64,000 nt of DNA. It comes from Candidatus Pacearchaeota archaeon. GTDB lineage: Archaea; Nanobdellota; Nanobdellia; Pacearchaeales; GW2011-AR1. How positions within the stretch are numbered: the first letter of the stretch is position 1; the number at the start of each line of letters is the position of its first letter. A program made the translations under genes and the position numbers. The DNA lies in the NCBI GenBank assembly GCA_041648455.1, contig JBAZOZ010000001.1, forward strand, positions 7,823 through 71,822. Reading direction: 5' to 3'. The notes beneath the pieces are model-generated. The model was not told where the DNA came from. It was given only the letters and a program-made list of their open reading frames with translations, and ran no database searches. Shown piece after piece: positions 2 to 26,184 of this stretch.

Positions 2-538
2 ATAAGATTTAGTGTAGATGGTGTAAAAAAAGAAACATTTGAATCAATAAGAAGGGGTGCAAATTTCGAGGAGGTAATATCTGGAATAGAAAAATTATAT
101 AAAAGAAGAAATGAAATGGGAGAAAAATTCCCCATAATAGAAGTCTTTTTTACCTTGCTAAAAGAAAATAAAGATGAAAGTAAAAAATTTTTAGAATATT
201 GGAAAGACAAATGTGATTTTGCTTCAATTTATCCTGCAGATTCCAGAGATTCTGGAAAATTTGTTGGGGTAGATTATAAAAAGTTTAAACCATATCCTTG
301 TTTTAACCCAAAAAGAGTTATAATTTTAAGCAATGGGAAGGTTGTTTTGTGTTGTGTAGATATTGACGGGGATGTTGTATTGGGAGATTTGAAAAAACAA
401 GGTTTAAGAGAAATTTTAAATTCAGATAAATATAAGAAAATTCATCTTTCACAAATGAATCGAAGTTGCCAGATACCAATGTGCAAAGATTGTTCAAAAT
501 TTTATATTGACTCTGCCTTTCAATGGTGGGTTTATTGA
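2..538 (+). CDS. radical SAM/SPASM-domain protein, C-terminal part (5' end lies outside window)
   Basis: Frame 2 is open from base 2 (IRFSVDGVKKETFESIRRG...). The C-terminus carries Cys clusters typical of SPASM/twitch domains (CFNPK..LCCVDIDG; CQIPMCKDC). Confidence 0.6.
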   Translation: MRFSVDGVKKETFESIRRGANFEEVISGIEKLYKRRNEMGEKFPIIEVFFTLLKENKDESKKFLEYWKDKCDFASIYPADSRDSGKFVGVDYKKFKPYPCFNPKRVIILSNGKVVLCCVDIDGDVVLGDLKKQGLREILNSDKYKKIHLSQMNRSCQIPMCKDCSKFYIDSAFQWWVY

Positions 539-2283
539 GAATGAATTATCTCATAAACAAAAGCGTCTTCTTTGATTGCTATTAACTTAAATGTTAAATT
601 TCCATAGGTTTTTTCTTGTTTTATGTCTTGTTTATTATTGATGAAATCAATTGTTGTGTTCATAAAAGGAATTTCCCACTTGCTTAATGTAACCTCTCCG
701 GTTTGAGGATTTTGAACATATTCCTCTCCTTCTTTTCTCATCCAATCTGAATGGCCGGGTTCAGAAAAAGAAACTATAATATATTTTACGTTGCTGTTGT
801 TTTTTACTTTATCTAAAAATTCTTCAAAAGTAATTTTATTATTTGGCCTATTCTCGTCTACCAACCCTGCTGGACTTAAGGAAATTCTTTCTGAATAATA
901 TGCTGCTTGGGAAACTGGAACATTAATTATGATATCTTCAATATTGGAATTATCTTTTAAAAACAATCCCGCTTCTTTAATTCCCGAATAAGAATTAACT
1001 TTATTTTTTATAATCATATCTGCATGTTTATATTCATAATACCCGCCAAAACCAACTAAAAAGATTAATACAATCACTCCAATAGTTTTATAATATTTTC
1101 CTATAAAATTTGTAACTAAAAGAGTTCCTTTAGAAATACAAACAAAAGAACCTAAAAGCAGTGGAAAATACCATCGAGGTTCTCCCACTTGTCCGTTTCT
1201 ATTAATGAAGAAGAATAAAATTAAAGTTAAAACAATAGTTAAAAAAAAGAAAAAATCTGATTTTAATTCTTCATTACCTTCTTTTTTTCTTAAAAATTTA
1301 AAACCAATAAATAAATTAAATAATAAGATAAAAAAACCAATCCAAAAAAGCCAAATTAAAACGCTTAGGGCAGGATTGAAAACATTTCCAAAAAAAGCTC
1401 CAAATATCTGTAAGGCCGAAAAATCAGGAGAAAATCCAAATGCATCGGAGATTGTAGAAGAAATGTCTAAAGAAGAAATAAATACAAATTTATTGAAGAA
1501 TAAATATAGCAAACCAGCGAGGACAAGAGAAACCCAATTATATTTGTCTTTAATTAAAGTTTTGAAATCTTTAGTAGCCAACATATAAATCAAGAAAAAA
1601 ATTCCGAATAAAGCATAACTTTTCCTAATGGAATAAACAATAAACACAAAAAATACTGTTATCAAAATTGAATATTTTGAATTAATTTTTCCAAATATTT
1701 TTTCTTTTCTTTCATAACCCTGCCAAAATATATAAATTGAGAGAAAAGCAAAAAACAATGCAGGAACATCTAGTTGAAATCTAAACGATTCAAATAGAAT
1801 ATCCCAAAGAGTAGCCATTAAAAAAGTGGAAATTAATGCTATCTTTTTATCTTTATACATCAAGATACATATTTTGTAAGTCAGATAAACTAAAAGTATC
1901 GACGGAATTAACTCTAAAATAAATCTTGAAACTAATTCAGAAGAACTTAATTTTAATAAAGCTGCTGCAAGATATGGAAATAAAGAATTGTGTTTGGGTG
2001 TTACAATCCAATCAACATTTCCAATTCCTGCAAGATTTTTTGCATAAGCCATATAATCTGCTTCATCCCACCAAAGGGGCTGGTTTTTTGTAACAAAAAA
2101 GAAATATAATCTAATTATAATTCCCAAAATGAAAATTCCGATAAAGATGGCAGTATATTTATTTTTTATCAGAGAAGAAATTTTCTTTTTTGCCTTTTCC
2201 TTTCTTTCTTCAATCTCTTTTGAAGTTTCTCCCAATCCTTCCGACATATCGATTAAATCCCCTTTTTCTCCTTTTTCTTCCAT
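532..2283 (-). CDS. GT-C fold integral-membrane glycosyltransferase (ArnT/PMT-like)
   Basis: 583 aa with more than 10 predicted TM helices. LWWDEADY acidic motif sits in the first extracytoplasmic loop, characteristic of the PMT/ArnT (COG1807) family. Confidence 0.6.
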   Translation of the reverse strand: MEEKGEKGDLIDMSEGLGETSKEIEERKEKAKKKISSLIKNKYTAIFIGIFILGIIIRLYFFFVTKNQPLWWDEADYMAYAKNLAGIGNVDWIVTPKHNSLFPYLAAALLKLSSSELVSRFILELIPSILLVYLTYKICILMYKDKKIALISTFLMATLWDILFESFRFQLDVPALFFAFLSIYIFWQGYERKEKIFGKINSKYSILITVFFVFIVYSIRKSYALFGIFFLIYMLATKDFKTLIKDKYNWVSLVLAGLLYLFFNKFVFISSLDISSTISDAFGFSPDFSALQIFGAFFGNVFNPALSVLIWLFWIGFFILLFNLFIGFKFLRKKEGNEELKSDFFFFLTIVLTLILFFFINRNGQVGEPRWYFPLLLGSFVCISKGTLLVTNFIGKYYKTIGVIVLIFLVGFGGYYEYKHADMIIKNKVNSYSGIKEAGLFLKDNSNIEDIIINVPVSQAAYYSERISLSPAGLVDENRPNNKITFEEFLDKVKNNSNVKYIIVSFSEPGHSDWMRKEGEEYVQNPQTGEVTLSKWEIPFMNTTIDFINNKQDIKQEKTYGNLTFKLIAIKEDAFVYEIIHSQ

Positions 2284-2317
2284 TCTAATTTGAATTGTGA
2301 ATTGTTTTTATTAATTG

Positions 2318-3205
2318 CTATTTTGTGGTTTCCACTCGTTTCCATGCGTCAGAGTATTTTCTTTTTTTTACATAACTATTAAAAAATAAATTCATCCAAA
2401 TATAAAATCTTAATGGAAAAAGCCAGAGTGTCCAAAATAATTCTTTAATATTCTCTGGATAAAAGAAGAGTGTGTATCCATCTATAATTTCATTGAAAAA
2501 GGTTTTCATTCGAGGTATTCTTTTTAAATCAACATACTTGCCAATATTATCATGAGCTCCAGCAGTTCTTCTCTTTTGTTTTAGGAACTCTGATAATTTA
2601 AGAGGATATTTAACATAAACTTTTGCATTCCGAGCATATTTTATTTTGTATCCTTTAAGATAAAACATTATGGGAACTATTGTATCTTCTCCAACATCTA
2701 ATGGGAATTTTTTTATTACTTTATTTTTAAATGCCCACAAGTATCCGGAACATTCTAAAAATTGATTTTTAATATTTCTTTTCTGTCTCCATCTATCAGC
2801 AGAATTACATAGAATATAAGACCAATAACCGAACATAGTGTTTTTTGATTCTAATGATTCAGGACAACCAGCAACACAACCAACTTTTTTATCTTCAAAA
2901 AATTTTAATATTTCATTAACGGAATTTTCTGAAACATAAACATCTCCGTCAGTAAGAATAATAATTTCCCCCCTTAATCTTGGAAGTAAAAGATTTAGTG
3001 CATAGGATTTTCCTTTTCCTGGATCCTTGAAGAGTTTTATTTTTTTATTATTTTTCTGATGGTGTTTTACTATTTCCCATGTTTGTTTATCTGGAGCAGC
3101 CACAATTAATTCATATTTTTCTTTAATATCCTGATTTATAAAAGAGTCTATTGCTTTTCCAATCGTATTTGGTTCGTTGAAGGAAGTAATAACTATTGAT
3201 ATCAT
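2318..3205 (-). CDS. family 2 glycosyltransferase (GT-A fold)
   Basis: MISIVITSFNEPNTIGKAIDSF...LTDGDVYV matches the GT2 N-terminal signature and DxD region. Start was moved to the internal Met so the gene abuts its upstream neighbour. Confidence 0.75.
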   Translation of the reverse strand: MISIVITSFNEPNTIGKAIDSFINQDIKEKYELIVAAPDKQTWEIVKHHQKNNKKIKLFKDPGKGKSYALNLLLPRLRGEIIILTDGDVYVSENSVNEILKFFEDKKVGCVAGCPESLESKNTMFGYWSYILCNSADRWRQKRNIKNQFLECSGYLWAFKNKVIKKFPLDVGEDTIVPIMFYLKGYKIKYARNAKVYVKYPLKLSEFLKQKRRTAGAHDNIGKYVDLKRIPRMKTFFNEIIDGYTLFFYPENIKELFWTLWLFPLRFYIWMNLFFNSYVKKRKYSDAWKRVETTK

Positions 3206-3206: not shown

Positions 3207-4748
3207 TTAAACCTTATAGCGTATTTTATCATACCAAACTTTAAATTCAACAGGCATTGATCTATAAATTTGCTTTGCAATTTTTTCTCTGAACACGTCG
3301 GAGATTCCAATAAAAAATAGAACAAAATAAGTTAAGATTGGATTTTTTAAATTCTCTTTTACTCTTTCTGGTTGAAGAAGATAATTGATTAAAAAATTTG
3401 GCATCGCCCCGAATCTTTTTTCAGTTACACTCCCCCTCATTAAATTCAATATTAAAACAAGATACATATTTTTCTTTTTTAAAAGAATATGTTTAGATCT
3501 GTCCCAATAATTTAATTTCGCACTCTTCAATATTTGCTTATTTAACATCGGATCATCTCTTGCTTTTTCATATAATCCAGAACCAGGAAAGAAAACTAAA
3601 TTATTTACTGATAAATAATATGGTTTTGGAATTTTTTGGAGAAGTCTTATCATACTTACAACATCTTCGGCTTTTTCATATGGATTGCAAGTTATAACGT
3701 CATACATCACAGTTAATTTATCTTTATATTCATTTATTATTCTTGCTGCATTTAGGACATCAGCGTCGGTTTGATTCCTGAAATAAATTTCTTTGTTTAC
3801 TCTCTCTGTTCCTTGAATTCCTATTATTATGTCTGTGCATCCGGCATCAACCAAGAGTTTTATTTTTTCATCTGAAATAGTTTTCGGATCCCCAAGACAT
3901 TTAAACCTCATATTTATTTTTTGTTTATATTTGTCACAGAAATCTTTTATTTGATTTAATGGCCTTAATGAAAATGTGTCATCTCTTATGTCAAAATAAT
4001 CTAGAGTTTTAAACTTCTTTTTCAAAAAAAGAATACAATTAATTATGTAATCTGAAGAGTGCCACCTTACAATGCTTTTGCACTTTCCTTTGTAAAGTTT
4101 GTTAAATAAATTATTGCTACAATAAGTGCAACCATAAGGACAGCCCCTTCCAGTCAAGAAAAAAATTCCTCCAGAAAGATCTTCTTCTTTGAATTTTCTT
4201 AGATTACTATTCTCTAAAATATAATGATATTGAACATCATAATCTGCAAAAGGCAATTCATCTAAATTATCTATTACTGGCCTAACTGAATTTTTTACTA
4301 TTTCATTATTTTTTTTATTTCTAACCCATAAATTTTTTATTTTATCGAACGATTTTTTGTTTTTAATCGCGTTGACTATATCTAAGATTGCTCCTTCTCC
4401 CTCGCCAACGCAAACAATGTCGACATATTTTATGCAATGCTCTGGAGAAATTGTTGCATGAACTCCGCCCCAAATTAAAGGCGCCTTAATCTTTTTTTCC
4501 AAGAATTTTATTATTTGTATTGCTCTTGGAGCTGTTGAAGCATAGGAACTTATTCCGATTAAATCCGAATTTCTGCAAATTTCTAATAGTTGATTTAATT
4601 CTCTTTTTTTATAAAATTTTGAATAATCTTCTGAATAAGCCATAAAAATTATTTTCACGTTGTGGCCTGATTTTTTTAGAACACTTGAAATGGTTCTTAT
4701 CCCCTGGTCTGAAGGAAATGTGGCCGTGGAAATCAAAGTTATTTTCAT
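3207..4748 (-). CDS. B12-binding domain radical SAM enzyme
   Basis: N-terminal Rossmann-like B12-binding region (IGISSYAS...WGGVHAT). Followed by a CxxxCxxC radical SAM cluster (GRGCPYGCTYCS). Confidence 0.8.
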   Translation of the reverse strand: MKITLISTATFPSDQGIRTISSVLKKSGHNVKIIFMAYSEDYSKFYKKRELNQLLEICRNSDLIGISSYASTAPRAIQIIKFLEKKIKAPLIWGGVHATISPEHCIKYVDIVCVGEGEGAILDIVNAIKNKKSFDKIKNLWVRNKKNNEIVKNSVRPVIDNLDELPFADYDVQYHYILENSNLRKFKEEDLSGGIFFLTGRGCPYGCTYCSNNLFNKLYKGKCKSIVRWHSSDYIINCILFLKKKFKTLDYFDIRDDTFSLRPLNQIKDFCDKYKQKINMRFKCLGDPKTISDEKIKLLVDAGCTDIIIGIQGTERVNKEIYFRNQTDADVLNAARIINEYKDKLTVMYDVITCNPYEKAEDVVSMIRLLQKIPKPYYLSVNNLVFFPGSGLYEKARDDPMLNKQILKSAKLNYWDRSKHILLKKKNMYLVLILNLMRGSVTEKRFGAMPNFLINYLLQPERVKENLKNPILTYFVLFFIGISDVFREKIAKQIYRSMPVEFKVWYDKIRYKV

Positions 4749-4757: not shown

Positions 4758-5933
4758 TTAAGAAGATATTTTATAAGGATTACGTATTAAAAGTTTTTCA
4801 TATTCATCCAGATACCTTCTGGTTATTGTGTCCCAATCAAATTCTTTTGATTTTTCAATATTATTTTTAGAAATTTGTTTTGCTAGATTTGGATTATCTA
4901 TAATTTTTAAAATATTTTCTTCCAAACTCTTCAAATCTCCATAATTGGAAAAAAAACCATTTTCTCCTTCAGTCATTTCAAAAGGAACACCATTAACTGG
5001 AGAGGCAATTATTGGCAATCCAGATGCCATTGCCTCAAACAGAGTAAGTGGAAGTCCTTCCCGATAACTTGGAAGAACATAAACATCTGATGCTTGATAC
5101 ATTTCGGCTATTTTTTCTTTTCCTTTAATTGGCCCTAAGTATTTCATATTTTTGTGTCCTTTTATTAAATTTTTGACTTCCTCTGCTTTTCCTTCGTCAG
5201 GCCCAACCCAAAAGAATGCGATATCTTTTCTCTTGTTAGAAATATTAATTGCAACTTGCGCCAACTTTTCTGGTCCTTTTGTTGGATTTAATCTTCCGAA
5301 AAATAAAACTAAATTTTTTTCCTTAATTTTATTTTTCTTCTTGAATTGATTATTTTTTATTTTTCTGAATAGAATTTTATCCATGCCATTCGGAATTACT
5401 TTTATTTTATTTTCTTCAGAATATTTCTTGAGAATATCTAATTCCCAGGGTGTTATGGCAATGATTTTGTCTACAAAATTAAAGGAAAATTTATTCACAA
5501 AGAAATCATTTAATAATAAAAATGGTTTTAAAATATTTGGACGAAAAGACGAATCCGTCCAAGGGCAATGAGTAGTGTGTATATGTTTAAATTTTCTTAT
5601 TCTAGAAACAAGCCCCACAAACAGAATATAATCATGTCCTGAAACATGAGTATGCACAATATCAAATTTCTCTTTAAATAATAAAAGTTTCCATAACAAT
5701 GACGGCCAGACAAAAGTATTTAGTGAAAGTCGTGCCCAATAAGGTAATCGATGAACATGAATTCCTTCAATTGTTTCTTCTTTTAATTTAATCCTCTTAT
5801 TTTTATCAGAATCACAACAAAAAACATGAACTTCATGCCCATCTTCAACTTGCCTTTTTGCCAATTCATACATGACTTGTTCTACACCCCCAAAAGTCGG
5901 AAAGAAGAACATATTTATGTGAGCGATTCTCAT
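4758..5933 (-). CDS. GT4 glycosyltransferase
   Basis: MRIAHINMFFFPTFGGVEQ N-terminus. C-terminal EGLPLTLFEAMASGLPIIAS matches the GT4 E-X7-E region. Confidence 0.75.
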   Translation of the reverse strand: MRIAHINMFFFPTFGGVEQVMYELAKRQVEDGHEVHVFCCDSDKNKRIKLKEETIEGIHVHRLPYWARLSLNTFVWPSLLWKLLLFKEKFDIVHTHVSGHDYILFVGLVSRIRKFKHIHTTHCPWTDSSFRPNILKPFLLLNDFFVNKFSFNFVDKIIAITPWELDILKKYSEENKIKVIPNGMDKILFRKIKNNQFKKKNKIKEKNLVLFFGRLNPTKGPEKLAQVAINISNKRKDIAFFWVGPDEGKAEEVKNLIKGHKNMKYLGPIKGKEKIAEMYQASDVYVLPSYREGLPLTLFEAMASGLPIIASPVNGVPFEMTEGENGFFSNYGDLKSLEENILKIIDNPNLAKQISKNNIEKSKEFDWDTITRRYLDEYEKLLIRNPYKISS

Positions 5934-6043
5934 ACTCTTTCCTGAATTTCTCATTAAAAATCTAAAAAAAAGAAGAGTTTAAAAGATTAGTGTAGTTGAG
6001 TTATGTTATATTGTGTTAATCACTTTTTTTGAACTTGTAAGAC

Positions 6044-6307
6044 TTAATTTCTCTTATAATAAATAGCAAATACAACAATATAAAATACAGATTCTAGAAT
6101 TCCCAATATATACTTAATAACAAGTGGCGGTTGAATTATCAAAAGGGCATAAATAAGAGCAATAATATTTGCTATAAAAAAGATGATAAATAACCATATA
6201 CTTACTCCCTCAGTACTCTTCCTCTTTAAAGTTTTAACTATTTGAGGAACTAATGCAACTGAAAACAAAATTGTCGCTGTCCAGCCAAGTAATTGTGTTA
6301 ATTGCAT
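6044..6307 (-). CDS. PQ-loop / SemiSWEET-like 3-TM transporter
   Basis: 87 aa with 3 TM helices. LVPQIVKTLKRKSTEGVS matches the PQ-loop consensus (PQ..k..k.kSteGlS). Confidence 0.5.
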   Translation of the reverse strand: MQLTQLLGWTATILFSVALVPQIVKTLKRKSTEGVSIWLFIIFFIANIIALIYALLIIQPPLVIKYILGILESVFYIVVFAIYYKRN

Positions 6308-6326
6308 TGTGTAAATAAAATTTTGA

Positions 6327-7094
6327 TTAGCTGTATCCCAGTGCTCTTAATTTTTCCATTATGGTCTCTCGTGCTACCCCCCTTCCTGCTCTTTCATGCG
6401 CATTAGGATCTTTATTGATGGACGTACATTCCATACAACCTAAAGAAGTATATCCTAATTTATATAATGGATTACATTCTATTTTTTCTTGCTTAATATA
6501 TTGCATAACATCTTGCGGTCTCCAAAATAATATCGGATGAACTCTCACATGTTTCGGACTTGCTCGAGGGGAAAAAATAGTTTCTTTTGCTCTTTCCTCA
6601 TGTTCTACTCCCCTAATTCCAGTAATTAGAGCATCCAGTTTTAATTTTTCAACTCCTCTCCTCATAGGTTCTATTTTATGGTACTCACAACAGACTTCTG
6701 TAAACTCCGGAGTTTTCAATCCAAACTTATCAATAAATTTTTTTACTTTATCTTCGTCTGCCTTGAAAGTATAAAAATTTGTAAGCTCCCATTCTCTTTT
6801 TACTTTTTCCAAGAATTCATAAGTTTCTTTGTGGTCGTGCTGCGTGTCTGAAAAAAGAACAGGAAGGTCACTTGGAAATTCTTTTAAAATTAAATGCAAC
6901 AAAACTAAACTATCTGAACCACCACTAAAACCAATTCCAACGTTATTATATTTTTTCTTGGCTTCTCTAATAATTTCCAAAGATTTTTCAATTTTTTCTG
7001 AAAGGGGCAAATCCAATAACTCTCTAACTTCTGGCCTCATTAAGTCTTCACACTTTTTTGTTCTAAACTCTTTTTGAAATCTTTGTTCAATCAT
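6327..7094 (-). CDS. PAPS reductase/ATP sulfurylase-type PP-loop ATP pyrophosphatase family protein
   Basis: SGGSDS PP-loop (GIGFSGGSDSLVLLH). C-terminal Cys pair (GCMEC). Confidence 0.6.
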   Translation of the reverse strand: MIEQRFQKEFRTKKCEDLMRPEVRELLDLPLSEKIEKSLEIIREAKKKYNNVGIGFSGGSDSLVLLHLILKEFPSDLPVLFSDTQHDHKETYEFLEKVKREWELTNFYTFKADEDKVKKFIDKFGLKTPEFTEVCCEYHKIEPMRRGVEKLKLDALITGIRGVEHEERAKETIFSPRASPKHVRVHPILFWRPQDVMQYIKQEKIECNPLYKLGYTSLGCMECTSINKDPNAHERAGRGVARETIMEKLRALGYS

Positions 7095-7150
7095 TATGTA
7101 TAATTATAGATAATTATGGTTTATAAACTTTTATATCTTGAAGAATACAA

Positions 7151-7363
7151 TTAAATATAACCTAATTTTTTTAGCCTGTTACTGATTTGAGTTCCATCTT
7201 CTTCGGACAAAATTTGCCTTAGAATAAACGCGATGTATGCTGATACCGAAGGCATTCCTGTTCCTTTAATTTTCTTTTTTACTTTTTCTATTAGAGGTAA
7301 GGGAAGAGAAATTGTTCCATATTTAACTTGTATCTCTTTTGCTTTTTTCTTTTTCATAATCAT
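7151..7363 (-). CDS. small basic protein, possible ribbon-helix-helix DNA-binding
   Basis: 70 aa. ISLPLPLIEKVKK resembles an RHH beta-strand/helix. Weak call. Confidence 0.3.
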   Translation of the reverse strand: MIMKKKKAKEIQVKYGTISLPLPLIEKVKKKIKGTGMPSVSAYIAFILRQILSEEDGTQISNRLKKLGYI

Positions 7364-7478
7364 ATATAATTGTAACAGTTATTAAAGTTTACTGATTTTA
7401 TTTGTAACATTTATTTTATCTATATTAAAGATATACAATCTTTAAAAATACTGAAATATAAATTAAATAATACAAAAA

Positions 7479-8762
7479 ATGGAAAACATAGCAATTATTA
7501 TAATTGACGCATTGAGGCCAAAGAATCTTAGTTTATTTGGATATGAAAAAGAAACTGATAAAAACTTAAAGAAAATAGCTGATGAGGGAATTTTATTCAA
7601 GAAGTTTTTTTCTGTTTCGAATTCAACTTTTCCCTCGATAACTTCTTTGTTTACAGGAAAATATCCAAACAACCACGGCATAATTCATCAAGCACCATAT
7701 GCAACTGACGAAGAATATGAAAAAATAGAGAGAGAAAAATTCTGGCTTGTTAATTTCTTAAAAGAAAAAGGTTACAGAACAATCGCAATTGACTGGATTG
7801 GATTATGGTTTAAGGAGGGATTTGATTATTATGGAGAGAGAAAAGAAGCATTTTATAAAAAATTTACAAAAAATTCTTTGGCGAAAAAAATCTTATTAAA
7901 TCTTCCAAGCTGGGCGTATAAATTTGGGAAAAGTTTTGTAAAAAAGAAAAATGAATCCTTGTTTCCTTCTGCAAAAGAAATGGTAGATGTGGCAATTTCG
8001 CAAATTAAAGAATCAAAAAAATTGGAAAAACCTTTTTTTCTGTTTATGCACTTTGAAGATACCCACTTTCCATATCCAAACGTTCCAAACCCCGAACCAA
8101 GCGGAGATAACGACATTGAAAAAGTATTAGAGAATATCAAATCACCCCCCCAAAGAGAATATTTCAAAAAAAGAATTGTTGATATTGAACTTAAATCAAT
8201 TAAAGATATGAAAAATAAATATGACTTGGCCATAGAGGGAATAGATAATCAAATTGGAAGACTAAGAGAATTTTTAATGAAAGATAAGGAATGGGAAAAT
8301 ACTTTATTTATCATCTTATCAGACCATGGAGATTCTTTGGATGAACATGAAATTTATTTTAGCCACGCCGGGCTTTTTGACGAATCAGTTCACGTTCCTT
8401 TAATAATAAAAATTCCAGGATTTGAAAAAAAAGAAATAAGCGAACTTGTGCAAACTGTTGATATTGCTCCAACTATCTTAGATAGATTTAACGAATCAAT
8501 AGAAGATTTTGATGGTAAATCTCTTCTTCCTTTAATTAAAGATGGAATTCCATTAAGAGACAAAGTATTCTTATTTGATGGTTTGGCAGAAAATATAAGA
8601 GCAATAAGAAGCAAAGATAAAAAAATAATTATTGCAGAAGGAAATAAATGTAATTTATGCAAATCGGAACATCATAAAAAATACGAAGAATATGATTTAA
8701 AAAAAGATCCCAGGGAATTGAATAATATATACAAAGAAAAAAAGAAAACAAAATTGAAATAA
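7479..8762 (+). CDS. sulfatase/alkaline-phosphatase superfamily enzyme (LtaS/EptA-like phospho-transferase more likely than formylglycine sulfatase)
   Basis: IIIDALRP...NSTFPSITSLFTGKYP metal/nucleophile region. SDHGDSLDEH..HVPLII. No C/S-x-P-x-R formylglycine motif seen. Confidence 0.7.
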   Translation: MENIAIIIIDALRPKNLSLFGYEKETDKNLKKIADEGILFKKFFSVSNSTFPSITSLFTGKYPNNHGIIHQAPYATDEEYEKIEREKFWLVNFLKEKGYRTIAIDWIGLWFKEGFDYYGERKEAFYKKFTKNSLAKKILLNLPSWAYKFGKSFVKKKNESLFPSAKEMVDVAISQIKESKKLEKPFFLFMHFEDTHFPYPNVPNPEPSGDNDIEKVLENIKSPPQREYFKKRIVDIELKSIKDMKNKYDLAIEGIDNQIGRLREFLMKDKEWENTLFIILSDHGDSLDEHEIYFSHAGLFDESVHVPLIIKIPGFEKKEISELVQTVDIAPTILDRFNESIEDFDGKSLLPLIKDGIPLRDKVFLFDGLAENIRAIRSKDKKIIIAEGNKCNLCKSEHHKKYEEYDLKKDPRELNNIYKEKKKTKLK

Positions 8763-10904: not shown

Positions 10905-11377
10905 ATCTTGATTGCGGAGAAGATTATAAACAAGGATGGATTAATTTAGACTTCAGGAAAAATGTGAATGCCGACGTTAAGCATGATCTGAATAAGTTCC
11001 CATATCCATTCAAAGAGAATTCCTTTGAGGAGATATTGTTAAAGATGATTTTAGAACATTTAGATAATCCTATAAAAGTTTTAAGAGAAGTTATAAGAAT
11101 ATCCAATGACAATGCAAAAGTAACAATAATTGTTCCACACGCATTTTCATATGCTAACAATACAGATATACAGCACAGGAGCAGATTCACAGAAAACTCT
11201 TTTGAAGAAAAATTATTAAAAGAATATGGATTGGGGGAGGGGTTGAGTTTGGTGAATAAGGAATTCTTATTTCCTGTAAATAAATGGAAAAAATATATTC
11301 TATTTAAGGGATTTTTAAAAATCTTTTTTAATGGCATCTATGATGATTTATTATTTGAATTTCAAATAAAAAAATAA
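10874..11377 (+). CDS. methyltransferase-like protein (degenerate SAM motif I)
   Basis: KLNLDCGEDYKQGWINLD...ILLKMILEHL resembles Methyltransf_11 proteins (LGCG..VD...VLEHL). Confidence 0.45.
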   Translation: MANMVSSKKLNLDCGEDYKQGWINLDFRKNVNADVKHDLNKFPYPFKENSFEEILLKMILEHLDNPIKVLREVIRISNDNAKVTIIVPHAFSYANNTDIQHRSRFTENSFEEKLLKEYGLGEGLSLVNKEFLFPVNKWKKYILFKGFLKIFFNGIYDDLLFEFQIKK

Positions 11378-19476: not shown

Positions 19477-21267
19477 ATGGATGGACAAAAATCAAAGATA
19501 TTTGATAGGTTCCTTAATTTTGTACTTAGAAAGAGAAATCTTTATCTAATTTTGATAATTTTAATTGCATTAGTTCTTAGAATTACCATAGCCTCCAATG
19601 TATATCCTCTTGCAGATGAAATGAATGTTGCAGTGAGATCTATAAATATCCATAATTCCGGAACAATGAATTCTATAGATGAAAGTCACAGCTTTTATTT
19701 TTTAACTGAAATAGGATATAAATTAACTGGCTACATAAATCTTATTACAGCAAGAGCACCATCCATATTATTTGGAATATTATCAATCTTATTGATTTAT
19801 TTAATCGTTCTTAAGTTATACAGAGACGAAAAAATAGCATTGGTTTCTGCGTTTCTTGTTGCGATATCTGGATTTCAAATAAGATACAGCCTAGCTGAAA
19901 TGGATATCACCATGGCTTTTTTTGTTCTTCTTAGTTCTTACGCATTCCTCTCAGCAATTTATGACAAAAAAGATTATATGTATTATATTTCAGCGTTATT
20001 TTTAGGATTGGCTATAGCAACCAAAACTTTTGCAGGAGTATGGGTTTTGAGTTATCTTGCATTCGGAATTTTTTATATTTCTAAGAATAAAGAATATGGG
20101 AAGGAATATATTGGTAAAAAAGGATTAAAAATAATTTTAATTTGTTTTTTTATTGTTCTAATTAGTTTGGTTCCTGTAATTATTGCGAACTATCTTTTAT
20201 ACAAAGACAGGGGAATTGTAGATTTTCAAATAGCGAGATATCTGAATATAAACAAAGAATATTATGCAGGTATTAGCGGCATTGAATCTCCATTTTTATT
20301 AAGTCAAATTTTTACTGGAATGAAATCTGGAATTAATACATTTTGGATTTTAGACCCTGCAATAAGTGTGTTAGCGATTCTTGGATTCATATTAACCTTT
20401 AAAAAATATAGGGAAGCTAATATTTTTTTGTTCCTTTGGTTTTTGTTTACTTTTTTATTTATTTCTGGAACTGCCTGGTTAGAAACTCATTTTGTTTATA
20501 ACACGCTTATTTTTTCTATTTTTTCTGCATTATTTATAGTTAATTTCGACAAAATGTTATTGAAAAAAGGGGTTAAATTTTTCATTCCAGTTGCATTAAT
20601 TTTAATTTTGATGATAAATTTGTGGATTCTTGCTCCCCATTTGACAAGTAAAACGGCAATTTCAAAAATGAGAAGTTATACCATCGAGAATATTGAAAAA
20701 GATAGTTTAGTTATTGTTGATCAAAGAATTTTCAGAGGAAGAACTGCATTTATATTTAATGATAGATATTATTTAGAAGCAGCTTATTTACCACAAATTA
20801 TAAATCAATTTGGTTCTAGTTCGGTAGAAAAAGTTCGAGTCAAAACTTACTTTATAGAATGTTTAAAAGATGATTGTGGTTGGGGAAATATAAAAGACCA
20901 ACCTGAATTAAATAAAAGCATGGAGGATTTAATAAAAACATTCCAAGGTATTTCTTCGGAAAAGGCAACTATCTATGCGGGTGGCGGGGGCGATGAAAAA
21001 AAAGGTGAACCTTATTTTAAAATTTATGAAACTGCAATTGAATTAAATCCCGCAGCATTGAAAGCAACCGAACAAACCCATGTTCACTTTTTTTATCCGG
21101 TTAATTGGAAAGGGGAAATTTATGATAAGTACAATGTAAAAAATTCCGTGGATGGGATTGCAAATGAAATTGGGTTCTTTATTTTTTATTTAACAATCTT
21201 ATTAGAGATTTTATCTCCTTTTATACTAATCTGGTTTTTTAAAAGAGAAAAGATTAATCCAAATTAA
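19477..21267 (+). CDS. GT-C fold integral-membrane glycosyltransferase (PMT_2/ArnT-like), second copy
   Basis: 596 aa, polytopic. PLADEMN acidic motif in the first loop. Architecture similar to 532..2283. Confidence 0.55.
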   Translation: MDGQKSKIFDRFLNFVLRKRNLYLILIILIALVLRITIASNVYPLADEMNVAVRSINIHNSGTMNSIDESHSFYFLTEIGYKLTGYINLITARAPSILFGILSILLIYLIVLKLYRDEKIALVSAFLVAISGFQIRYSLAEMDITMAFFVLLSSYAFLSAIYDKKDYMYYISALFLGLAIATKTFAGVWVLSYLAFGIFYISKNKEYGKEYIGKKGLKIILICFFIVLISLVPVIIANYLLYKDRGIVDFQIARYLNINKEYYAGISGIESPFLLSQIFTGMKSGINTFWILDPAISVLAILGFILTFKKYREANIFLFLWFLFTFLFISGTAWLETHFVYNTLIFSIFSALFIVNFDKMLLKKGVKFFIPVALILILMINLWILAPHLTSKTAISKMRSYTIENIEKDSLVIVDQRIFRGRTAFIFNDRYYLEAAYLPQIINQFGSSSVEKVRVKTYFIECLKDDCGWGNIKDQPELNKSMEDLIKTFQGISSEKATIYAGGGGDEKKGEPYFKIYETAIELNPAALKATEQTHVHFFYPVNWKGEIYDKYNVKNSVDGIANEIGFFIFYLTILLEILSPFILIWFFKREKINPN

Positions 21268-21288: not shown

Positions 21289-21999
21289 ATGAAATTTTTT
21301 AAAAATTATCTTAATTATAAGGTAAGTGCTCTTTTAAAAGAACATAATTTTAAATCTCCGATATTGGAAGTTGGATGTGGGACAGGGGAGACATTAGAAT
21401 TATTAAATAAAAACTACAAAATCGAAGGATTGGATTTTTCAGAACATGCAATAAAAAAATGCAAAGAAAAAAAATTGAATGCGCGAGTTGGAGATTTTTT
21501 TGAGAATAAAAAAAAATATAATTCTATTATTTGCCTGGATGTTATAGAACATGTAAAAGAAGATTCTAAATTTATACGGCATATAAACAAATGTTTGAAT
21601 AAAAACGGGAAATTATTTGCTTTAGTTCCGTCGGGAAAAATGATGAATGATGACGTGGGATATGGACATTATAGAAGATATTCTAAAGAAGAGATAATCA
21701 AAAAGATAGGGGGAGCAAACTTTAAAATTGAACATGCAGAAATGTTTGGCTATCCCTTTCTTCATTATTTGAGAATCGCCATGAATTATTTAATTTCGGG
21801 AAAGGAAGTTGAAAAAGAAGAAAAAGAAGAAAAAACAAAAAAGAGCTCTTATGAGAGTTTATTTGATAAAAGTTTTTTTAGCAAAATTGCTGATTTTTTT
21901 AACAACAGCAAGATTGTCCTTAAATTCTTATTATTGCAAGATTTTTTTATTAACCGAAACAAGGGGCTCGCAGTGATTGTTATTGCTAGGAAGATTTAG
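21289..21999 (+). CDS. class I SAM-dependent methyltransferase
   Basis: ILEVGCGTGETLELL motif I. ICLDVIEHV post-II motif. Confidence 0.75.
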   Translation: MKFFKNYLNYKVSALLKEHNFKSPILEVGCGTGETLELLNKNYKIEGLDFSEHAIKKCKEKKLNARVGDFFENKKKYNSIICLDVIEHVKEDSKFIRHINKCLNKNGKLFALVPSGKMMNDDVGYGHYRRYSKEEIIKKIGGANFKIEHAEMFGYPFLHYLRIAMNYLISGKEVEKEEKEEKTKKSSYESLFDKSFFSKIADFFNNSKIVLKFLLLQDFFINRNKGLAVIVIARKI

Positions 22000-22047: not shown

Positions 22048-22728
22048 CTAAATTTGTCGTTGACTATAAATATTCTTTTTACGAGCATTAAGTATCTTCC
22101 CCATAAATGCAGTTAATCCATAAAAAGAAAATTTAGGATTATTTCCGTAGGTTAAGGCATGGAAGGGGTGTATTGTTTCCATATAATTTTGTATTGCTTT
22201 AGTGTCTCCATCTTTAATATTTAGAAAATCTAACTTAAGTGCTTGAAAAGTTACTCCTTCATGCATCTGTTTAACAATTCCCCGAATTATATCGGGTTCT
22301 GAACTAAAAGGAATAAAATCTGCCATGTCAGAAAATACTTTTGTTGCACACCATAATCCTCTTTGCATATGCCCTACTTCTGTAAATAATCCAATATCAT
22401 GAAATTTTTTTGGGATAATTTCATTTGCAAAAGCAAAATTTGCTATAGTATCTAAAGAACAAACACCTTGTCTCTTCTCTTCTAAAATTAAATATTCGTC
22501 TTTTACTCCTTTTTGCAAAGCATAATCTCTCGCTTGTTCACAAATTGGTTTTTCTCCTTCTAATAGATAAATTCCATTTAAACCAGAGTGAGAACCAGTA
22601 AGATAAAGGGGGATGCGAGCTCCATGAACGGTTCCTATTTCATTATGAATTTTTATTACATGATTTGTTCTTGGTCTTGTTTTAGCATTTTCTCCTGCTA
22701 ACACCATTAAAAGTTCTAAGTTTTCCAT
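22048..22728 (-). CDS. DUF218 (YdcF/ElyC-like) domain protein
   Basis: LLMVLAGEN...IPLYLTGSHSG...YALQKGVKDEYLILEEKRQGVCSLDTIANFAF parallels the DUF218 core (vvLGg...iisGg...yl...Gvp.e.illE.qS.nTyeNa.fs). Confidence 0.5.
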   Translation of the reverse strand: MENLELLMVLAGENAKTRPRTNHVIKIHNEIGTVHGARIPLYLTGSHSGLNGIYLLEGEKPICEQARDYALQKGVKDEYLILEEKRQGVCSLDTIANFAFANEIIPKKFHDIGLFTEVGHMQRGLWCATKVFSDMADFIPFSSEPDIIRGIVKQMHEGVTFQALKLDFLNIKDGDTKAIQNYMETIHPFHALTYGNNPKFSFYGLTAFMGKILNARKKNIYSQRQI

Positions 22729-22776: not shown

Positions 22777-23340
22777 TTAGTTTGGAGTAAGTAAATATAT
22801 ACAAAGAGTAATTATTAAAGATATTAAGATTAATAAGATCAATAAAATTATTTTAGATATTTTAGAAATTAAATGTAGTTTTTTAGGATAGATTTTTCTT
22901 TCGCATTTTTTTAATCCTGAAAGGTCTCTAAATGAATCTATAAAGAAACCCATTGGAGCTCCAATAAATAAAGCAAAAATAGAAGTCAAAAGAGTTGCGG
23001 AGAGTATTTTAAAAAAATTAGTTTCTCCTGCAATAAAATAAATAATTGGTGCTGTTAATAAATTAAAGATTCCTAGATAAATAGCATCGTGAAAAATTTG
23101 TATTTTTTCATTAGTTTTATGAGTGATATGAAAAAGTTTTCTTGAAAGATCTCTGCCTCCAGAAATTAATTTTCCTAAACCTAAAAAAGATAGTATTATA
23201 GCATAAGCCCGAGCACGAATAGAATTTAAATCGCTTATTTTGGATATGGCATTTTCTAAAAAAACAAAAAATGGTGTAGAAAAAGTTATTATAGCAGTAG
23301 TATCTATTAAATGATATTTTATAAATTTCTTAAATCCCAT
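22777..23340 (-). CDS. integral membrane protein, function unknown
   Basis: 187 aa with 5-6 TM helices. No recognisable motif. Confidence 0.4.
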   Translation of the reverse strand: MGFKKFIKYHLIDTTAIITFSTPFFVFLENAISKISDLNSIRARAYAIILSFLGLGKLISGGRDLSRKLFHITHKTNEKIQIFHDAIYLGIFNLLTAPIIYFIAGETNFFKILSATLLTSIFALFIGAPMGFFIDSFRDLSGLKKCERKIYPKKLHLISKISKIILLILLILISLIITLCIYLLTPN

Positions 23341-23429: not shown

Positions 23430-24113
23430 ATGATTGAATCAAAAAAAGAATACATCGTCATCCCGGCATACAACGAAGAAAAGAGTTTGGGGAAAGTTGT
23501 AGATGATTTAAGAAAAAATAAATTTGAAAATATAATCGTTGTTAATGATGGTTCTATAGACAATACATTTGAAGTTGCCAAGAACAAAAAAGTAAAGATA
23601 TATTCTCATATAATTAATCGCGGTTTGGGAGGAGCATTGAATACCGGAATTTCAGCAGCACTAATGAACCATGCAGATATTATTGCAACTTGCGACGCTG
23701 ATGGGCAGCACGACCCAATGGATGTTAAAAGAGCTATAGAATTTTTAAAAAAAGAAAATTTAGATGTTGTTATTGGTTCAAGGCTAATAAACTCAAAAGG
23801 AATGCCCATATCAAGAAGAATTATTAATTCTGGCGCTAGTTTTGTTACTCAATTATTATTTGGAATTTATTCAACAGACACCCAATCTGGATTGAGAGTT
23901 TTTACTAAAGAAGCTGCAGAAAAGATAATAATAAAAACAAATAAAATGGAAGTCTCGTCGGAGATTATTAAAGAAATAGGAAGGAATAAATTAAAATTTA
24001 AAGAAATTCCTATAAAAGCTATATACACTGATTATTCTATAGAAAAAGGCCAAAGAGGATTAAATGCTTTTAACATTGCATACAAACTTATGTTAAGGAA
24101 AATTATGAAATGA
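23430..24113 (+). CDS. GT2 polyprenol-phosphate glycosyltransferase (DPM1/GtrB-like)
   Basis: YIVIPAYNEEKSLGKVVDDL...IIVVNDGSIDNT...TCDADGQHDP is typical of dolichyl-phosphate mannose/glucose synthases. Confidence 0.8.
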   Translation: MIESKKEYIVIPAYNEEKSLGKVVDDLRKNKFENIIVVNDGSIDNTFEVAKNKKVKIYSHIINRGLGGALNTGISAALMNHADIIATCDADGQHDPMDVKRAIEFLKKENLDVVIGSRLINSKGMPISRRIINSGASFVTQLLFGIYSTDTQSGLRVFTKEAAEKIIIKTNKMEVSSEIIKEIGRNKLKFKEIPIKAIYTDYSIEKGQRGLNAFNIAYKLMLRKIMK

Positions 24114-24180: not shown

Positions 24181-24182
24181 AA

Positions 24183-24506
24183 ATGATAATTCAATGGGTA
24201 ATCTTAATTTTAGTACTTTTTATGTATTTCAAACTTTTAATGGATTTGAAAAAAGGGAGAATTTCCTTGAGAAGATTTTTCTTTTGGTTGTTTATCTGGA
24301 CAGGACTTTCGTTAATTACATATTTTCCTCAAATAGTTTTCTTTTTTTCTAATTTAATTGGTATTGAAAGAGCCAAGGATTTGCCTATTTATGTTTCTAT
24401 AATTTTATTATTTTATCTATTATTCAAAATAAGTATAAGAATAGAAGAAATTGAACAGGGAATAACTAAAATAGTTAAAAAGATTGCGCTGGGAGTTAAG
24501 GAATGA
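24183..24506 (+). CDS. DUF2304-family small membrane protein (GtrA-like partner of DPM1-type GT2)
   Basis: 107 aa with 3 TM helices. Immediately downstream of the GT2. The hydrophobic pattern WVILILVLFMYFKLLMDLKKGRISLRRFFFWLFIW fits the family. Confidence 0.45.
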   Translation: MIIQWVILILVLFMYFKLLMDLKKGRISLRRFFFWLFIWTGLSLITYFPQIVFFFSNLIGIERAKDLPIYVSIILLFYLLFKISIRIEEIEQGITKIVKKIALGVKE

Positions 24507-24712
24507 AAATACAAAAATTAAAAATTTTTACCCTTCCACATGGAAAACAAGAAATTTTAGAAGAAATAAGAATTTTTTTACCACTTATGGAAAATAAGAA
24601 AAACAGAAAAGTTTTTCATCTCTCCAAATCAAGAAGATTTGAAGATAAGAAATTTTCTGTCCCATTCAAAATAGGAAATTTTGAAGACAAACATAGGAGA
24701 TGTTCGAGATGA
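24503..24712 (+). other. 69-codon mini-ORF / intergenic repeat element (paralogous to 57374..57505)
   Basis: MKIQKLKIFTLPHGKQEILEE... The first 45 nt are almost identical to 57374-57418. ATGA overlaps at both ends (24503/24506 and 24709/24712). Confidence 0.4.
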
Positions 24713-26184
24713 AAATAGAAAAGAAAATTATCTTTGTAAATCCACCCTCGGAGACAAAAATTATTAGAGAGGGAAGATGTGAACAAAGAGCAGATTCTTA
24801 TCAATATCTTATGGTTCCAATTTCTTTACCGTCGAGTGCGGCAGTTTTGCGTGAAGCTGATTTTGATGTTAAGATAATTGATTGTATTGCAGATGAAATA
24901 AATTTAAAAGAACTAGAAGAAATATTAAAAAAGGAATCTCCGTTTTTTGTTATCATTAATGTTGCTACTATGTCTTTTGCAAAAGATAAACTTGCTGCGG
25001 AAATTTGTAATAAATTGAAAATTCCGTGCGCAGCAATGGGAATGCATGTAACAACTCTTCCTGAAGAATCACTTAAAGAATCAAAATTTGATTTTGTTAT
25101 TCGTGGAGAACCAGAAATGACTGCATTAAATCTTGCAAAAGCAATTGGAAAAGATAATTTGTTAAAGCAAGTTAGAGGAATTAGTTATACAGAAAATAGG
25201 GAATTTTCTGTCTCACAAACTTCTAAGGGAAAACAAGAAGTTCGTGATAGAAAAAAGGAAAAAATAATTCATAATAAGGATGCTGAATTAATTCAGAATT
25301 TAGATGAATTGCCTTTTCCTGCCAGAGATTTATTAAAAAATGAAAAATATATTGAACCATTGACGCAAGATCCTTATACTCTTGTAATTACTGGTAGGGG
25401 TTGCCCATATGGTTGCATCTTTTGCACTGCAGATAAATATTATGGAAAAAAACAACGAATAAGAAGTCCTAAAAATATTGTGGATGAGATTGAAGAAATT
25501 ATAAGAAAATATGGAATTACTCATATTGGGATGTGGAATGATACATTCACCTTTAATAAAGAACAAGTAATAGGCATATCAAAAGAAATATTAAAAAGAA
25601 ATATTAAAATAATTTGGTTTTGCAACAGCAGAGTTGATACTTTCGACGAGGAAAGGGCAAAATGGATGTCCCAATCTGGATGTAAGGTAATAACTTTCGG
25701 AGTTGAGAGTTTGGACGAAGAAATTTTGAAAAGAGCAAAGAAAAATATAACTTTAGAACAAGTAAAGAACGCTGTTGAAATATGCAAGAGGTATAATATC
25801 GGAAGTCAACTACATTTGATATTCGGCTTGCCTGGAGAAACAGAAAAAACAATCGAAAACACAATAAAGAACGTCATAAAATTAGACCCCGACTATGCAC
25901 AATTTTATTGTGCCGTCCCATTTCCTGGAACAGAATTTAGAGAATATGTTTTAAAAAATAATTTTCTTAAAGAAGTTCCATGGAGCCAATATGAAATAAA
26001 TAACTCGCTGATTTCTTATCCTAATCTTTCCAGCAAGAAAATTCAATATGCAAGAAAAAAAGCATATAGAAAATTTTATCTAAGACCAAAATATATTCTT
26101 AAAAAAATGAAAAAATTCCCAATGAAAGAATGGAGGAAAATTTCTGTTCAAGCTTATAATTTTTTTAAGGGGTGGGTTTTCTAA
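24709..26184 (+). CDS. B12-binding domain radical SAM enzyme (start more likely 24709 than 24700)
   Basis: B12-like N-terminal domain (FFVIINVATMSF...AMGMHVT). Radical SAM cluster (TGRGCPYGCIFCTAD). Confidence 0.8.
   Translation: MKIEKKIIFVNPPSETKIIREGRCEQRADSYQYLMVPISLPSSAAVLREADFDVKIIDCIADEINLKELEEILKKESPFFVIINVATMSFAKDKLAAEICNKLKIPCAAMGMHVTTLPEESLKESKFDFVIRGEPEMTALNLAKAIGKDNLLKQVRGISYTENREFSVSQTSKGKQEVRDRKKEKIIHNKDAELIQNLDELPFPARDLLKNEKYIEPLTQDPYTLVITGRGCPYGCIFCTADKYYGKKQRIRSPKNIVDEIEEIIRKYGITHIGMWNDTFTFNKEQVIGISKEILKRNIKIIWFCNSRVDTFDEERAKWMSQSGCKVITFGVESLDEEILKRAKKNITLEQVKNAVEICKRYNIGSQLHLIFGLPGETEKTIENTIKNVIKLDPDYAQFYCAVPFPGTEFREYVLKNNFLKEVPWSQYEINNSLISYPNLSSKKIQYARKKAYRKFYLRPKYILKKMKKFPMKEWRKISVQAYNFFKGWVF

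Follow-up and report, generated by a model that had tools for sequence, protein, structure and literature searches.

Several described systems come close to the locus that we analyse here, a run of genes at positions 2-26184 of a 64-kb stretch of DNA (the window; coordinates are window positions unless a locus id of the form Lxxx is given) in which class B radical S-adenosylmethionine (SAM) enzymes (rSAMs) are encoded among glycosyltransferases (GTs). The methylases GenK/GenD1, MoeK5 and Fom3 share superfamily and domain layout with these rSAMs; GenK and MoeK5 methylate sugar carbons, MoeK5 on a lipid-phosphoglycerate-linked sugar. GenK, MoeK5 and Fom3 belong to natural-product antibiotic pathways, whereas the context here is an envelope glycan. 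Archaeal Agl clusters resemble the locus in having a lipid-carrier initiator, soluble GTs, a Wzx-like flippase and methyltransferases, and we know of no characterised Agl pathway that contains class B rSAMs. A small GT2, a DUF2304 protein and a GT-C enzyme are encoded in each locus of the GacI/GacJ/GacL system (group A carbohydrate of Streptococcus) and the PpgS/Rv3632/Rv3779 system (Mycobacterium), as they are here; to our knowledge these bacterial systems for lipid-phosphate-linked N-acetylhexosamine (HexNAc) have no radical SAM component. PpgS is the mycobacterial polyprenyl-phospho-N-acetylgalactosamine synthase; the DUF2304 proteins GacJ and Rv3632 bind and stimulate GacI and PpgS, and GT-C enzymes use the resulting lipid-phosphate-HexNAc (bioRxiv 10.1101/180810). 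HpnJ, a non-methylating class B enzyme, has been proposed from genetics to ring-contract glucosamine attached to bacteriohopanetetrol (PMC13459092, PMC9204698). AprD4, a radical SAM 1,2-diol dehydratase acting on an aminosugar, binds no cobalamin despite its Rossmann-like domain (PMC12931638).

The window belongs to an uncultured Pacearchaeota (DPANN) archaeon. On balance, and with moderate confidence, we read 2-26184 as the larger part of a chromosomal island that builds a cell-surface glycan on lipid carriers, with rSAMs that tailor GT2-linked sugars. As to the role of these enzymes, the evidence best supports a radical tailoring of lipid-linked sugars; their substrate, reaction and use of cobalamin we infer by analogy. 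The island combines two known kinds of system, the lipid-phosphate-sugar/GT-C side-chain systems and the HpnJ-type class B rSAMs. In the literature searched, we found no account of B12-type rSAMs with polyprenyl-phosphate GT2/GT-C systems or in DPANN glycosylation.

The strongest evidence comes from the last of the class B genes in the window, rSAM4, which follows a GT2 gene and a DUF2304 gene, the latter 69 nt past the GT2. We scanned genome and metagenome collections with an rSAM4 profile and obtained, among the matches listed, about 19 orthologue-grade loci, 17 of them with enough flanking sequence to score; 75 loci with other, unrelated rSAMs from the same scans served as controls. A PpgS-like GT2 lay on the same strand, within 1.8 kb of the rSAM4 orthologue, in 15 of the 17 loci listed and in none of the 75 controls (Fisher p = 2e-15). 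The scored loci span DPANN, the Candidate Phyla Radiation (CPR), Acidobacteriota, Nitrospirae and others, and a GacJ-like DUF2304 and a GT-C often join the pair. The closest relatives, L003 and L087, have GT-C, GT2, DUF2304 and rSAM4 contiguous and a 149-aa membrane protein convergent with them, with 35-37% identity to the window protein in the same position; in L003 an orthologue of the window enzyme GT-C_B (62% identity) stands directly upstream of GT2-DUF2304-rSAM4. GT-C_B itself is a probable user of the lipid-phosphate-sugar made by the module downstream of it.

The GT2 of this module has PpgS as its best NCBIfam model, matched over its full length (3-225 of 226) at 164.5 bits against a cut-off of 370, and the archaeal AglJ as second best. 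The HpnI model gives no match to it, and only 25 bits on GT2_A, the partner of rSAM1 described below. The best relatives of the PpgS-like GT2 in the PDB are the Pyrococcus dolichol-phosphate-mannose synthase and ArnC. Compared with the Gac and PpgS systems, the module differs in its sub-cut-off PpgS score and in having an rSAM as a near-obligate fourth member.

A similar arrangement occurs in a cultivable organism. The 27-kb plasmid pl03 of Lawsonia intracellularis (L167, NZ_CP107057.1) carries a GT2, two successive DUF2304 genes, a SIS gene and an HpnJ-like rSAM, and continues with class I methyltransferases and another rSAM gene, to which four or more additional methyltransferases are joined. 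Its GT2 is 39% identical to the window GT2, and its rSAM is 29% identical to rSAM4 and 33% to HpnJ. This cluster is an analogue of the rSAM4 module.

HpnJ is also the named enzyme to which rSAM4 comes nearest. It is the best NCBIfam model for rSAM4 (TIGR03471, matched over its full length at 225.5 bits against a cut-off of 577.6), HpnJ proteins are end-to-end 29-33% identical to the rSAM4 family, and tblastn of rSAM4 against plasmids recovered annotated hpnJ genes. In Paraburkholderia graminis (L166) the GT2 gene hpnI comes immediately after hpnJ, much as rSAM4 stands beside a GT2. The module also differs from the HpnI-HpnK-HpnJ system of the bacteriohopanetetrol cyclitol ether pathway: the GT2 partner of rSAM4 is PpgS-like and not HpnI-like, no deacetylase adjoins rSAM4, the host is archaeal, and no hopanoid genes were seen in the window. 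The motif EGRCEQR is specific to the rSAM4 family and absent from HpnJ, and the product of rSAM4 is probably a GT-C donor rather than a final membrane lipid.

A gene for a membrane protein with an LPG_synthase_TM domain follows hpnJ-hpnI in Paraburkholderia (L166 6554-7606), and another flanks the rSAM4 orthologue of an Aenigmarchaeota locus (L002 11388-12407). This protein may be a third partner shared by hpnJ-hpnI and rSAM4 loci.

A second cassette is built around rSAM1. Its genes run on the minus strand in the order GT4_A, rSAM1, GT2_A and GT-C_A, the last being the final gene of the operon, and a single nucleotide separates the TAA stop of rSAM1 from the ATG of GT2_A. Orthologues of rSAM1 and GT2_A lie side by side in L085 (GT2_A 45% identical) and L172, where a GT4_A orthologue (72%) stands directly upstream of the rSAM1 orthologue; relatives of GT-C_A annotated as PMT_2 (29-34% identity) occur in the same kind of islands in both. 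On the 347-kb contig L171 the two genes (6001-8431; rSAM1 75%, GT2_A 67%) overlap by 26 nt and have only housekeeping genes around them, and rSAM1-GT2 is therefore a self-contained unit. Upstream of the window a fifth class B enzyme, rSAM5, is followed co-directionally by another rSAM and a GT2, which brings the class B rSAMs encoded beside a GT2 to at least three of five (rSAM1, rSAM4 and rSAM5). The conserved GT2 cassettes of rSAM4 and rSAM1 support a functional tie between these rSAMs and glycosylation.

The island carries the genes for two routes to a surface glycan. In an en-bloc route, an AglH/WecA-like initiator, soluble GT2, GT4 and GT34-like enzymes and a nucleoside diphosphate (NDP)-sugar dehydratase/epimerase would assemble a lipid-linked oligosaccharide, which class I methyltransferases (probably O-methyltransferases) would decorate and Wzx-like flippases would flip. 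In a single-sugar route, the PpgS/GacI-like GT2 and the GacJ-like DUF2304 protein would make polyprenyl-phosphate-HexNAc at the cytoplasmic face and, after flipping, a GT-C would transfer the sugar outside the cell. The class B rSAMs, which have no transmembrane (TM) segments and are predicted to be soluble, would be cytoplasmic tailoring enzymes. We propose that rSAM4 acts by hydrogen-atom abstraction on the sugar that the GT2 has linked to its lipid phosphate, and that it does so before flipping because it needs cytoplasmic SAM and reducing power. The outcome could be an HpnJ-like ring contraction or rearrangement, an AprD4-like dehydration or deoxygenation, or a C-methylation, and the GT-C would then install the modified unit on the surface glycan.

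The same gene order can be read one step earlier in the pathway, with the rSAMs acting on soluble nucleotide sugars before the GT2 uses them and the GT2 linkage reflecting donor supply. The adjacency of rSAM and GT2 fits such an order equally well, the rSAMs are soluble, an NDP-sugar dehydratase/epimerase is present in the island, and the known sugar-modifying rSAMs DesII and BlsE act on nucleotide-linked sugars. We nevertheless regard this as possible but doubtful, given that the substrate proposed for HpnJ, the named enzyme most closely related, is a lipid-linked sugar which the GT2 encoded next to it makes, and that the rSAM1-GT2 pair of L171 has no nucleotide-sugar gene adjoining it.

As to the chemistry, the preliminary description of this locus had taken the four class B enzymes of the window to be B12-dependent and suggested a heavily C-methylated or otherwise radical-tailored glycan. 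All four do match the Pfam B12-binding (PF02310; 53.7, 66.3, 70.4 and 45.0 bits against a gathering cut-off of 32.1) and Radical_SAM domains and carry CxxxCxxC, with the cysteine triad invariant in the alignment. They were also called paralogous, which holds in an ancient sense only: the five class B rSAMs of the island are pairwise 25-33% identical, rSAM1, rSAM3 and rSAM4 fall into conserved families of their own, and the enzymes represent old, separate families and not recent copies. The rSAM1 family comprises more than 120 clusters at 67-92% identity, every named one from Nanoarchaeota or Pacearchaeota. Its sister family in a neighbour-joining tree without support values is rSAM3, which has homologues of 50-55% identity in Pacearchaeota and of 37-47% in Omnitrophota, Aenigmarchaeota, Promethearchaeota and others, with glycan contexts in L169 and L170. 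Homologues of rSAM4 at 45-50% identity occur in Woesearchaeota, Aenigmarchaeota, Patescibacteria/CPR, Actinomycetota and Thermodesulfobacteriota. For rSAM2, a search of protein representatives gave top hits at 49-51% identity and then a diffuse cloud at 35-45%, with no defined orthologue group.

Another reading is that the four enzymes of the window are cobalamin-dependent C-methyltransferases making a heavily C-methylated product. Most characterised class B rSAMs are methylases (reviews), and in a sequence similarity network HpnJ itself still falls together with the methylases Fom3 and MoeK5 when the thresholds are stringent (review). The best PDB sequence match of rSAM2 is the methyl-coenzyme M reductase (MCR) glutamine C-methyltransferase 9ccb (2.7e-19), followed by AprD4 and TokK, and the best NCBIfam model for rSAM5 is the Sden_1168 P-methyltransferase family (218 bits against 575). 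With five class B enzymes in the island, at least one is likely to be a methylase. However, all five score far below cut-off with the methylase models HpnR, PhpK, KedN5, TsrM, the C-methyltransferases of peptides made on ribosomes and modified after translation (RiPPs) and the MCR glutamine C-methyltransferase; the models scored are those in NCBIfam, where GenK, Fom3 and MoeK5 have none. For rSAM4 the top-scoring family, HpnJ, is no methylase, and the top fold match, AprD4, is neither methylase nor cobalamin enzyme; three to four class I methyltransferases are moreover already there for ordinary O- or N-methylation. We therefore consider methylation by all four enzymes rather improbable. For the rSAMs of the island, C-methylation and cobalamin use are plausible hypotheses, and sequence comparison does not indicate C-methylation for any one of them.

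For rSAM4, perhaps with others, a cobalamin-independent reaction would be a further alternative: an AprD4-like diol dehydratase that, with a reductase, gives a deoxy sugar, its B12-binding domain serving only as a Rossmann-like scaffold. AprD4, whose role is the C3'-deoxygenation in apramycin, is the best match of rSAM4 among solved structures by sequence (6.5e-23) and by fold. An AlphaFold model of rSAM4 (AF2; pLDDT 88.6, pTM 0.89) has AprD4 as its top match (E 3e-26, TM 0.74/0.79), and AprD4's own substrate is an aminosugar ring. DPANN genomes, as far as we know, are generally without cobalamin synthesis. The Pfam B12-binding match is no proof of cobalamin use, because AprD4 has the same domain and binds none. 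Against this stand an AprD4 family score (NF033070) of 112.8 bits against a cut-off of 500 and below HpnJ's 225, fold matches that are likewise strong to the cobalamin-binding TsrM, MgmA, OxsB, CysS and TokK, which come next after AprD4, and the fact that no AprD3-like reductase was identified beside rSAM4. The two proteins are about 20% identical. The pathway of AprD4 is that of an antibiotic, with a soluble pseudodisaccharide as substrate, and rSAM4 stands in the context of an envelope glycan. We consider this alternative unlikely.

It is very improbable that the rSAMs are unrelated to glycans and merely co-located with them, as peptide (RiPP-like) modifiers or as membrane-lipid-chain modifiers like the enzymes acting on glycerol dialkyl glycerol tetraethers: class B rSAMs about 30% identical do occur in RiPP clusters and archaeal lipid-modifying rSAMs exist, but the rSAM-GT2 cassettes are conserved across domains, glycan genes recur near homologues in eight further inspected loci, and Pfam scans of the window and the upstream part found no precursor peptide, protease, PqqD or lipid-synthesis gene in the island. 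A RiPP or natural-product cluster was likewise rejected, flippases, GT-C enzymes and an initiator being present and precursor peptide, protease and PqqD absent.

Several points weigh against radical tailoring of lipid-linked sugars, the reading that we favour. Gene order cannot separate action of an rSAM on the GT2 product from the making of the GT2's nucleotide-sugar donor. A fixed GT2 partner is missing for two of the class B enzymes, rSAM2 and rSAM3. All five stay below every curated NCBIfam cut-off, and functional transfer is for every one of them by analogy. The best models are the MJ_1487 family for rSAM1 (80.7 bits against 251; HpnJ 77.5), BchE for rSAM2 (160 against 481; HpnJ 113.6) and HpnJ for rSAM3 (105 against 577.6), with those of rSAM4 and rSAM5 as given above. 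A Clostridium homologue at 33% identity sits in a RiPP cluster, so that identities of about 30% cannot fix the substrate. The reaction proposed for HpnJ has genetic support only, and the tree in which HpnJ is sister to the rSAM4 family is a small neighbour-joining tree with neither support values nor methylase references. Neither the genes of the island nor the other large ORFs in the window gave a match to AglB/STT3, and the window has no deacetylase that we could find.

Glycan islands with several rSAMs characterise the wider lineage and are not peculiar to this window. The 648-kb Pacearchaeota contig L085 has four B12-type rSAMs, two SPASM rSAMs, GT2s and epimerases within about 21 kb, plus a GT4, a GT9 and a GT-C, and a second contig of Nanoarchaeota type has four B12-type rSAMs, two SPASM rSAMs, GT2s and epimerases, again in about 21 kb. 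Woesearchaeota and Aenigmarchaeota loci carry two to three B12-type rSAMs amid GTs, heptose-pathway or aminosugar genes and a flippase, with STT3 in one. A cluster denser still surrounds the rSAM3 homologue on the Omnitrophota contig JBDRPX010000003.1 (L170), from a metagenome-assembled genome: 11 rSAM genes fall within 17.5 kb, of which five are B12-type, four have a Zn_ribbon_HMPTM domain, one is a SPASM rSAM and one is of another kind, together with a DegT aminotransferase and a GT2. Such islands are therefore found in four or more lineages (Pacearchaeota, Woesearchaeota, Aenigmarchaeota and Omnitrophota), whose members are uncultured and for the most part have small genomes.

A broader proposal, which we put forward only tentatively, is that a cassette of two to four genes (lipid-phosphate-HexNAc synthase, GacJ-like helper, HpnJ-related rSAM and GT-C), found in both prokaryotic domains, makes and exports a radically rearranged polyprenyl-phosphate sugar, and is one of several rSAM-GT2 modules of ultra-small symbionts. 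Its product would possibly be, for example, a ring-contracted or carbocyclic, a deoxy or a C-branched sugar, with cobalamin possibly scavenged from hosts. The users of such modules would be DPANN, CPR and Omnitrophota.

Gene content was taken from a listing of open reading frames (ORFs) in six frames and from Pfam scans, and curated families were assigned with NCBIfam cut-offs. The preliminary description had delimited a 26-kb locus at 2-26184. In a phmmer sweep of all window ORFs, rSAM and GT homologues were confined to the first 26.2 kb, and the remaining 37.8 kb held no further homologue of either, so that the clustering is real. The right edge, after the 149-aa membrane protein that follows rSAM4, is also real because SecD and SecF come next. 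The left edge, by contrast, is an artefact of the window: the same sequence is found as a 65-kb ENA contig (L084) running past the window start, on which the glycan island goes on for at least 10 kb (L084 12284-21752). The whole island measures 36 kb or more, and seven of its genes encode radical SAM enzymes, five of them class B (Table 1).

Table 1. Genes of the island, from the upstream part on contig L084 to its downstream edge in the window (aa, amino acids; bit scores are from Pfam models unless stated otherwise).
Feature	Position	Strand	Evidence and remarks
Full SPASM rSAM, 333 aa	L084 11746-12747		Window 2-538 is its 3' part
rSAM5, fifth B12-type rSAM, 500 aa	L084, upstream of window		
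Non-B12 rSAM, Fer4_12-type, 383 aa	L084, upstream of window		
Three GT2s and one GT4	L084, upstream of window		
Second flippase	L084, upstream of window		Polysacc_synt
Initiator, AglH/WecA/MraY-like	L084, upstream of window		Glycos_transf_4
SPASM rSAM, 3' part	2-538	+	SPASM 53.6 bits
GT-C_A, ArnT/PMT-like polytopic membrane GT	532-2283	-	PMT 20.9 bits, weak; nine TM-like segments
GT2_A, 295 aa, rSAM1 partner	2318-3205	-	Glycos_transf_2 72.8 bits
rSAM1, class B rSAM	3207-4748	-	B12-binding and Radical_SAM
GT4_A	4758-5954	-	Glycos_transf_1 117 bits; upstream of rSAM1, same operon
SemiSWEET (PQ-loop) small sugar transporter	6044-6307	-	PQ-loop 58 bits, MtN3_slv 36.6 bits
PAPS-reductase-family protein	6327-7094	-	PAPS_reduct 153 bits; NCBIfam CysH 138 against cut-off 154
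Sulfatase-like protein, alkaline-phosphatase superfamily	7479-8762	+	Sulfatase 166.7 bits; soluble, no TM segment
rSAM2, class B rSAM	8764-10230	-	B12-binding and Radical_SAM
Class I SAM methyltransferase	10296-10904	+	Methyltransf_24 65 bits
Conserved 167-aa protein	10874-11377	+	Methyltransf_11 22.2 bits, weak, partial profile
GT4_B	11520-12590	+	Glycos_transf_1 121 bits
NDP-sugar epimerase/4,6-dehydratase (short-chain dehydrogenase/reductase)	12593-13477	+	Epimerase 130.8 bits; dTDP-glucose dehydratase model 118 against cut-off 365
GT34-like	13482-14294	-	Glyco_transf_34 43.7 bits against cut-off 23
rSAM3, class B rSAM	14387-15940	+	B12-binding and Radical_SAM
Class I SAM methyltransferase	15950-16627	+	Methyltransf_23 46.6, Methyltransf_11 44.8 bits
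Wzx-like flippase (Polysacc_synt/MATE)	16605-18155	-	Polysacc_synt 85 bits; thirteen TM-like segments
Membrane-anchored GINT1_N/GH43-like protein, 418 aa	18159-19415	-	GINT1_N 220.5 bits; four N-terminal TM-like segments
GT-C_B (PMT_2/ArnT-like)	19477-21267	+	PMT_2 52.8, PMT 46.2 bits; ten TM-like segments
Class I SAM methyltransferase	21289-21999	+	Methyltransf_23 63.7 bits
DUF218 (SanA/ElyC-like)	22048-22728	-	DUF218 29.5 bits against cut-off 27.6
187-aa membrane protein	22777-23340	-	Three TM-like segments; AlaE match sub-threshold only
PpgS/GacI-like GT2, predicted polyprenyl-phosphate-HexNAc (or hexose) synthase	23430-24113	+	Glycos_transf_2 102.7 bits
DUF2304 (GacJ/Rv3632 family) small membrane protein	24183-24506	+	DUF2304 73.7 bits
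rSAM4, HpnJ-related class B rSAM	24709-26184	+	B12-binding and Radical_SAM; soluble
149-aa membrane protein	26196-26645	-	Downstream edge of the island; convergent neighbour of rSAM4

The gene list bears out each class of gene that had been described, at the coordinates given. The partial SPASM rSAM and the GT2, GT4, GT-C, GT34-like, epimerase, flippase, DPM1/DUF2304 pair, DUF218, SemiSWEET, sulfatase-family and PAPS-reductase-like genes were all recovered by Pfam, and the assignment to an envelope-glycan or lipid-linked-sugar island is upheld by the Wzx-like flippases, the GT-C enzymes, the PpgS/GacI-GacJ-like pair and the upstream AglH/WecA-like initiator. Of the four class I methyltransferases claimed, three are clear, and the protein at 10874 has only its weak, partial match; homologues of the latter lie near rSAM4 orthologues in L087 (44%) and L007 (31%). 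The preliminary description is confirmed and if anything understated in its observation and partly supported in its interpretation. Its wording of an otherwise radical-tailored lipid-linked oligosaccharide fits best, given the conserved rSAM4-GT2 and rSAM1-GT2 cassettes; B12 dependence and C-methylation stay assumptions because rSAM4 is nearest to the non-methylating HpnJ and to AprD4, which uses no cobalamin.

Some further features of individual genes deserve mention. The PAPS-reductase-family gene opens a run of adjoining minus-strand genes (7094 to 532). The methyltransferase ORF at 15950 starts 9 nt past rSAM3; in the public annotation the gene (207 aa) begins only at about 16004. Ordinary O- or N-methylation is the probable role of the class I methyltransferases. 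The GINT1_N protein, missing from the preliminary list, is encoded in an operon with the flippase. Searches of PDB sequences with GT-C_B and GT2_A gave nothing informative. The best NCBIfam model of the SPASM rSAM is a tungsten-cofactor maturase (126 bits against a cut-off of 380), and the upstream non-B12 rSAM scores 55 bits with the Tes model. A publicly annotated 69-aa ORF between DUF2304 and rSAM4 (24503-24712) was rejected as a partner, as it is not conserved in L003 or L087; it is probably no gene, and a 202-nt spacer therefore remains between the two genes.

The enzyme described as a member of the sulfatase family has the Sulfatase domain and lacks the formylglycine motif: S-T-F-P-S-I, read by eye from the translation, aligns where sulfatases carry C/S-x-P-x-R. 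A formylglycine sulfatase is therefore improbable; as a member of the alkaline-phosphatase superfamily, the protein may instead catalyse phosphoryl transfer. The SPASM rSAM was considered as its maturase and rejected, with 31 bits against a cut-off of 349 for the anaerobic sulfatase maturase model and the formylglycine motif absent.

The window has a GC content of about 29%, which had raised the idea of a methanogen host; this was rejected since the best match is to Pacearchaeota, rSAM4 being 100% identical to a protein from an NCBI metagenome-assembled genome named Candidatus Pacearchaeota archaeon. Beyond the island, its 37.8 kb encode SecDF, a major facilitator superfamily transporter, tRNAs, 5S rRNA, a MacB-type ABC system, an insertion sequence (IS) transposase, Orc1/Cdc6 and PolD; the archaeal Cdc6 and PolD fit an archaeal chromosome. 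The SecD homologue (26635-28185) has weak N-terminal PDZ matches, all below the Pfam cut-off, which are unusual for SecD. A lone 5S rRNA gene is present at 31460-31574; some 0.5 kb separate it from tRNA-Arg(CCT), and tRNA-Gly(TCC) is another 1.5 kb off (29253-31574); no 16S or 23S rRNA genes were found within the window. The transposase (DDE_Tnp_1, IS element) is at 49605-50534, in the housekeeping part. Upstream of orc1/cdc6 (54519-55727), the region 54221-54436 contains a perfect 15-nt direct repeat, TTTTCCATAGGAAAT, at 54324-54338 and 54422-54436, with a TTCCA..GGAAA dyad resembling an origin recognition box and an (AAT)n run close by. It is the AT-richest part of the window and lies near Cdc6 and PolD. 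This region is probably a replication origin.

Because DPANN archaea, like other ultra-small organisms, live attached to hosts, their surface glycans probably have a central part in the contact. Here, a very small genome gives over 36 kb or more, with seven radical SAM genes, to the tailoring of glycans. The cassettes yield a testable hypothesis, namely that GT2-paired class B rSAMs modify sugars, possibly at the lipid-carrier stage, and Lawsonia intracellularis, a cultivable pathogen with an rSAM4-like cassette, offers an experimental entry point. If these enzymes need cobalamin, a vitamin dependency would be added to organisms that are probably unable to make it. Enzymes that work without it would instead enlarge the cobalamin-independent, AprD4-like branch of the superfamily.

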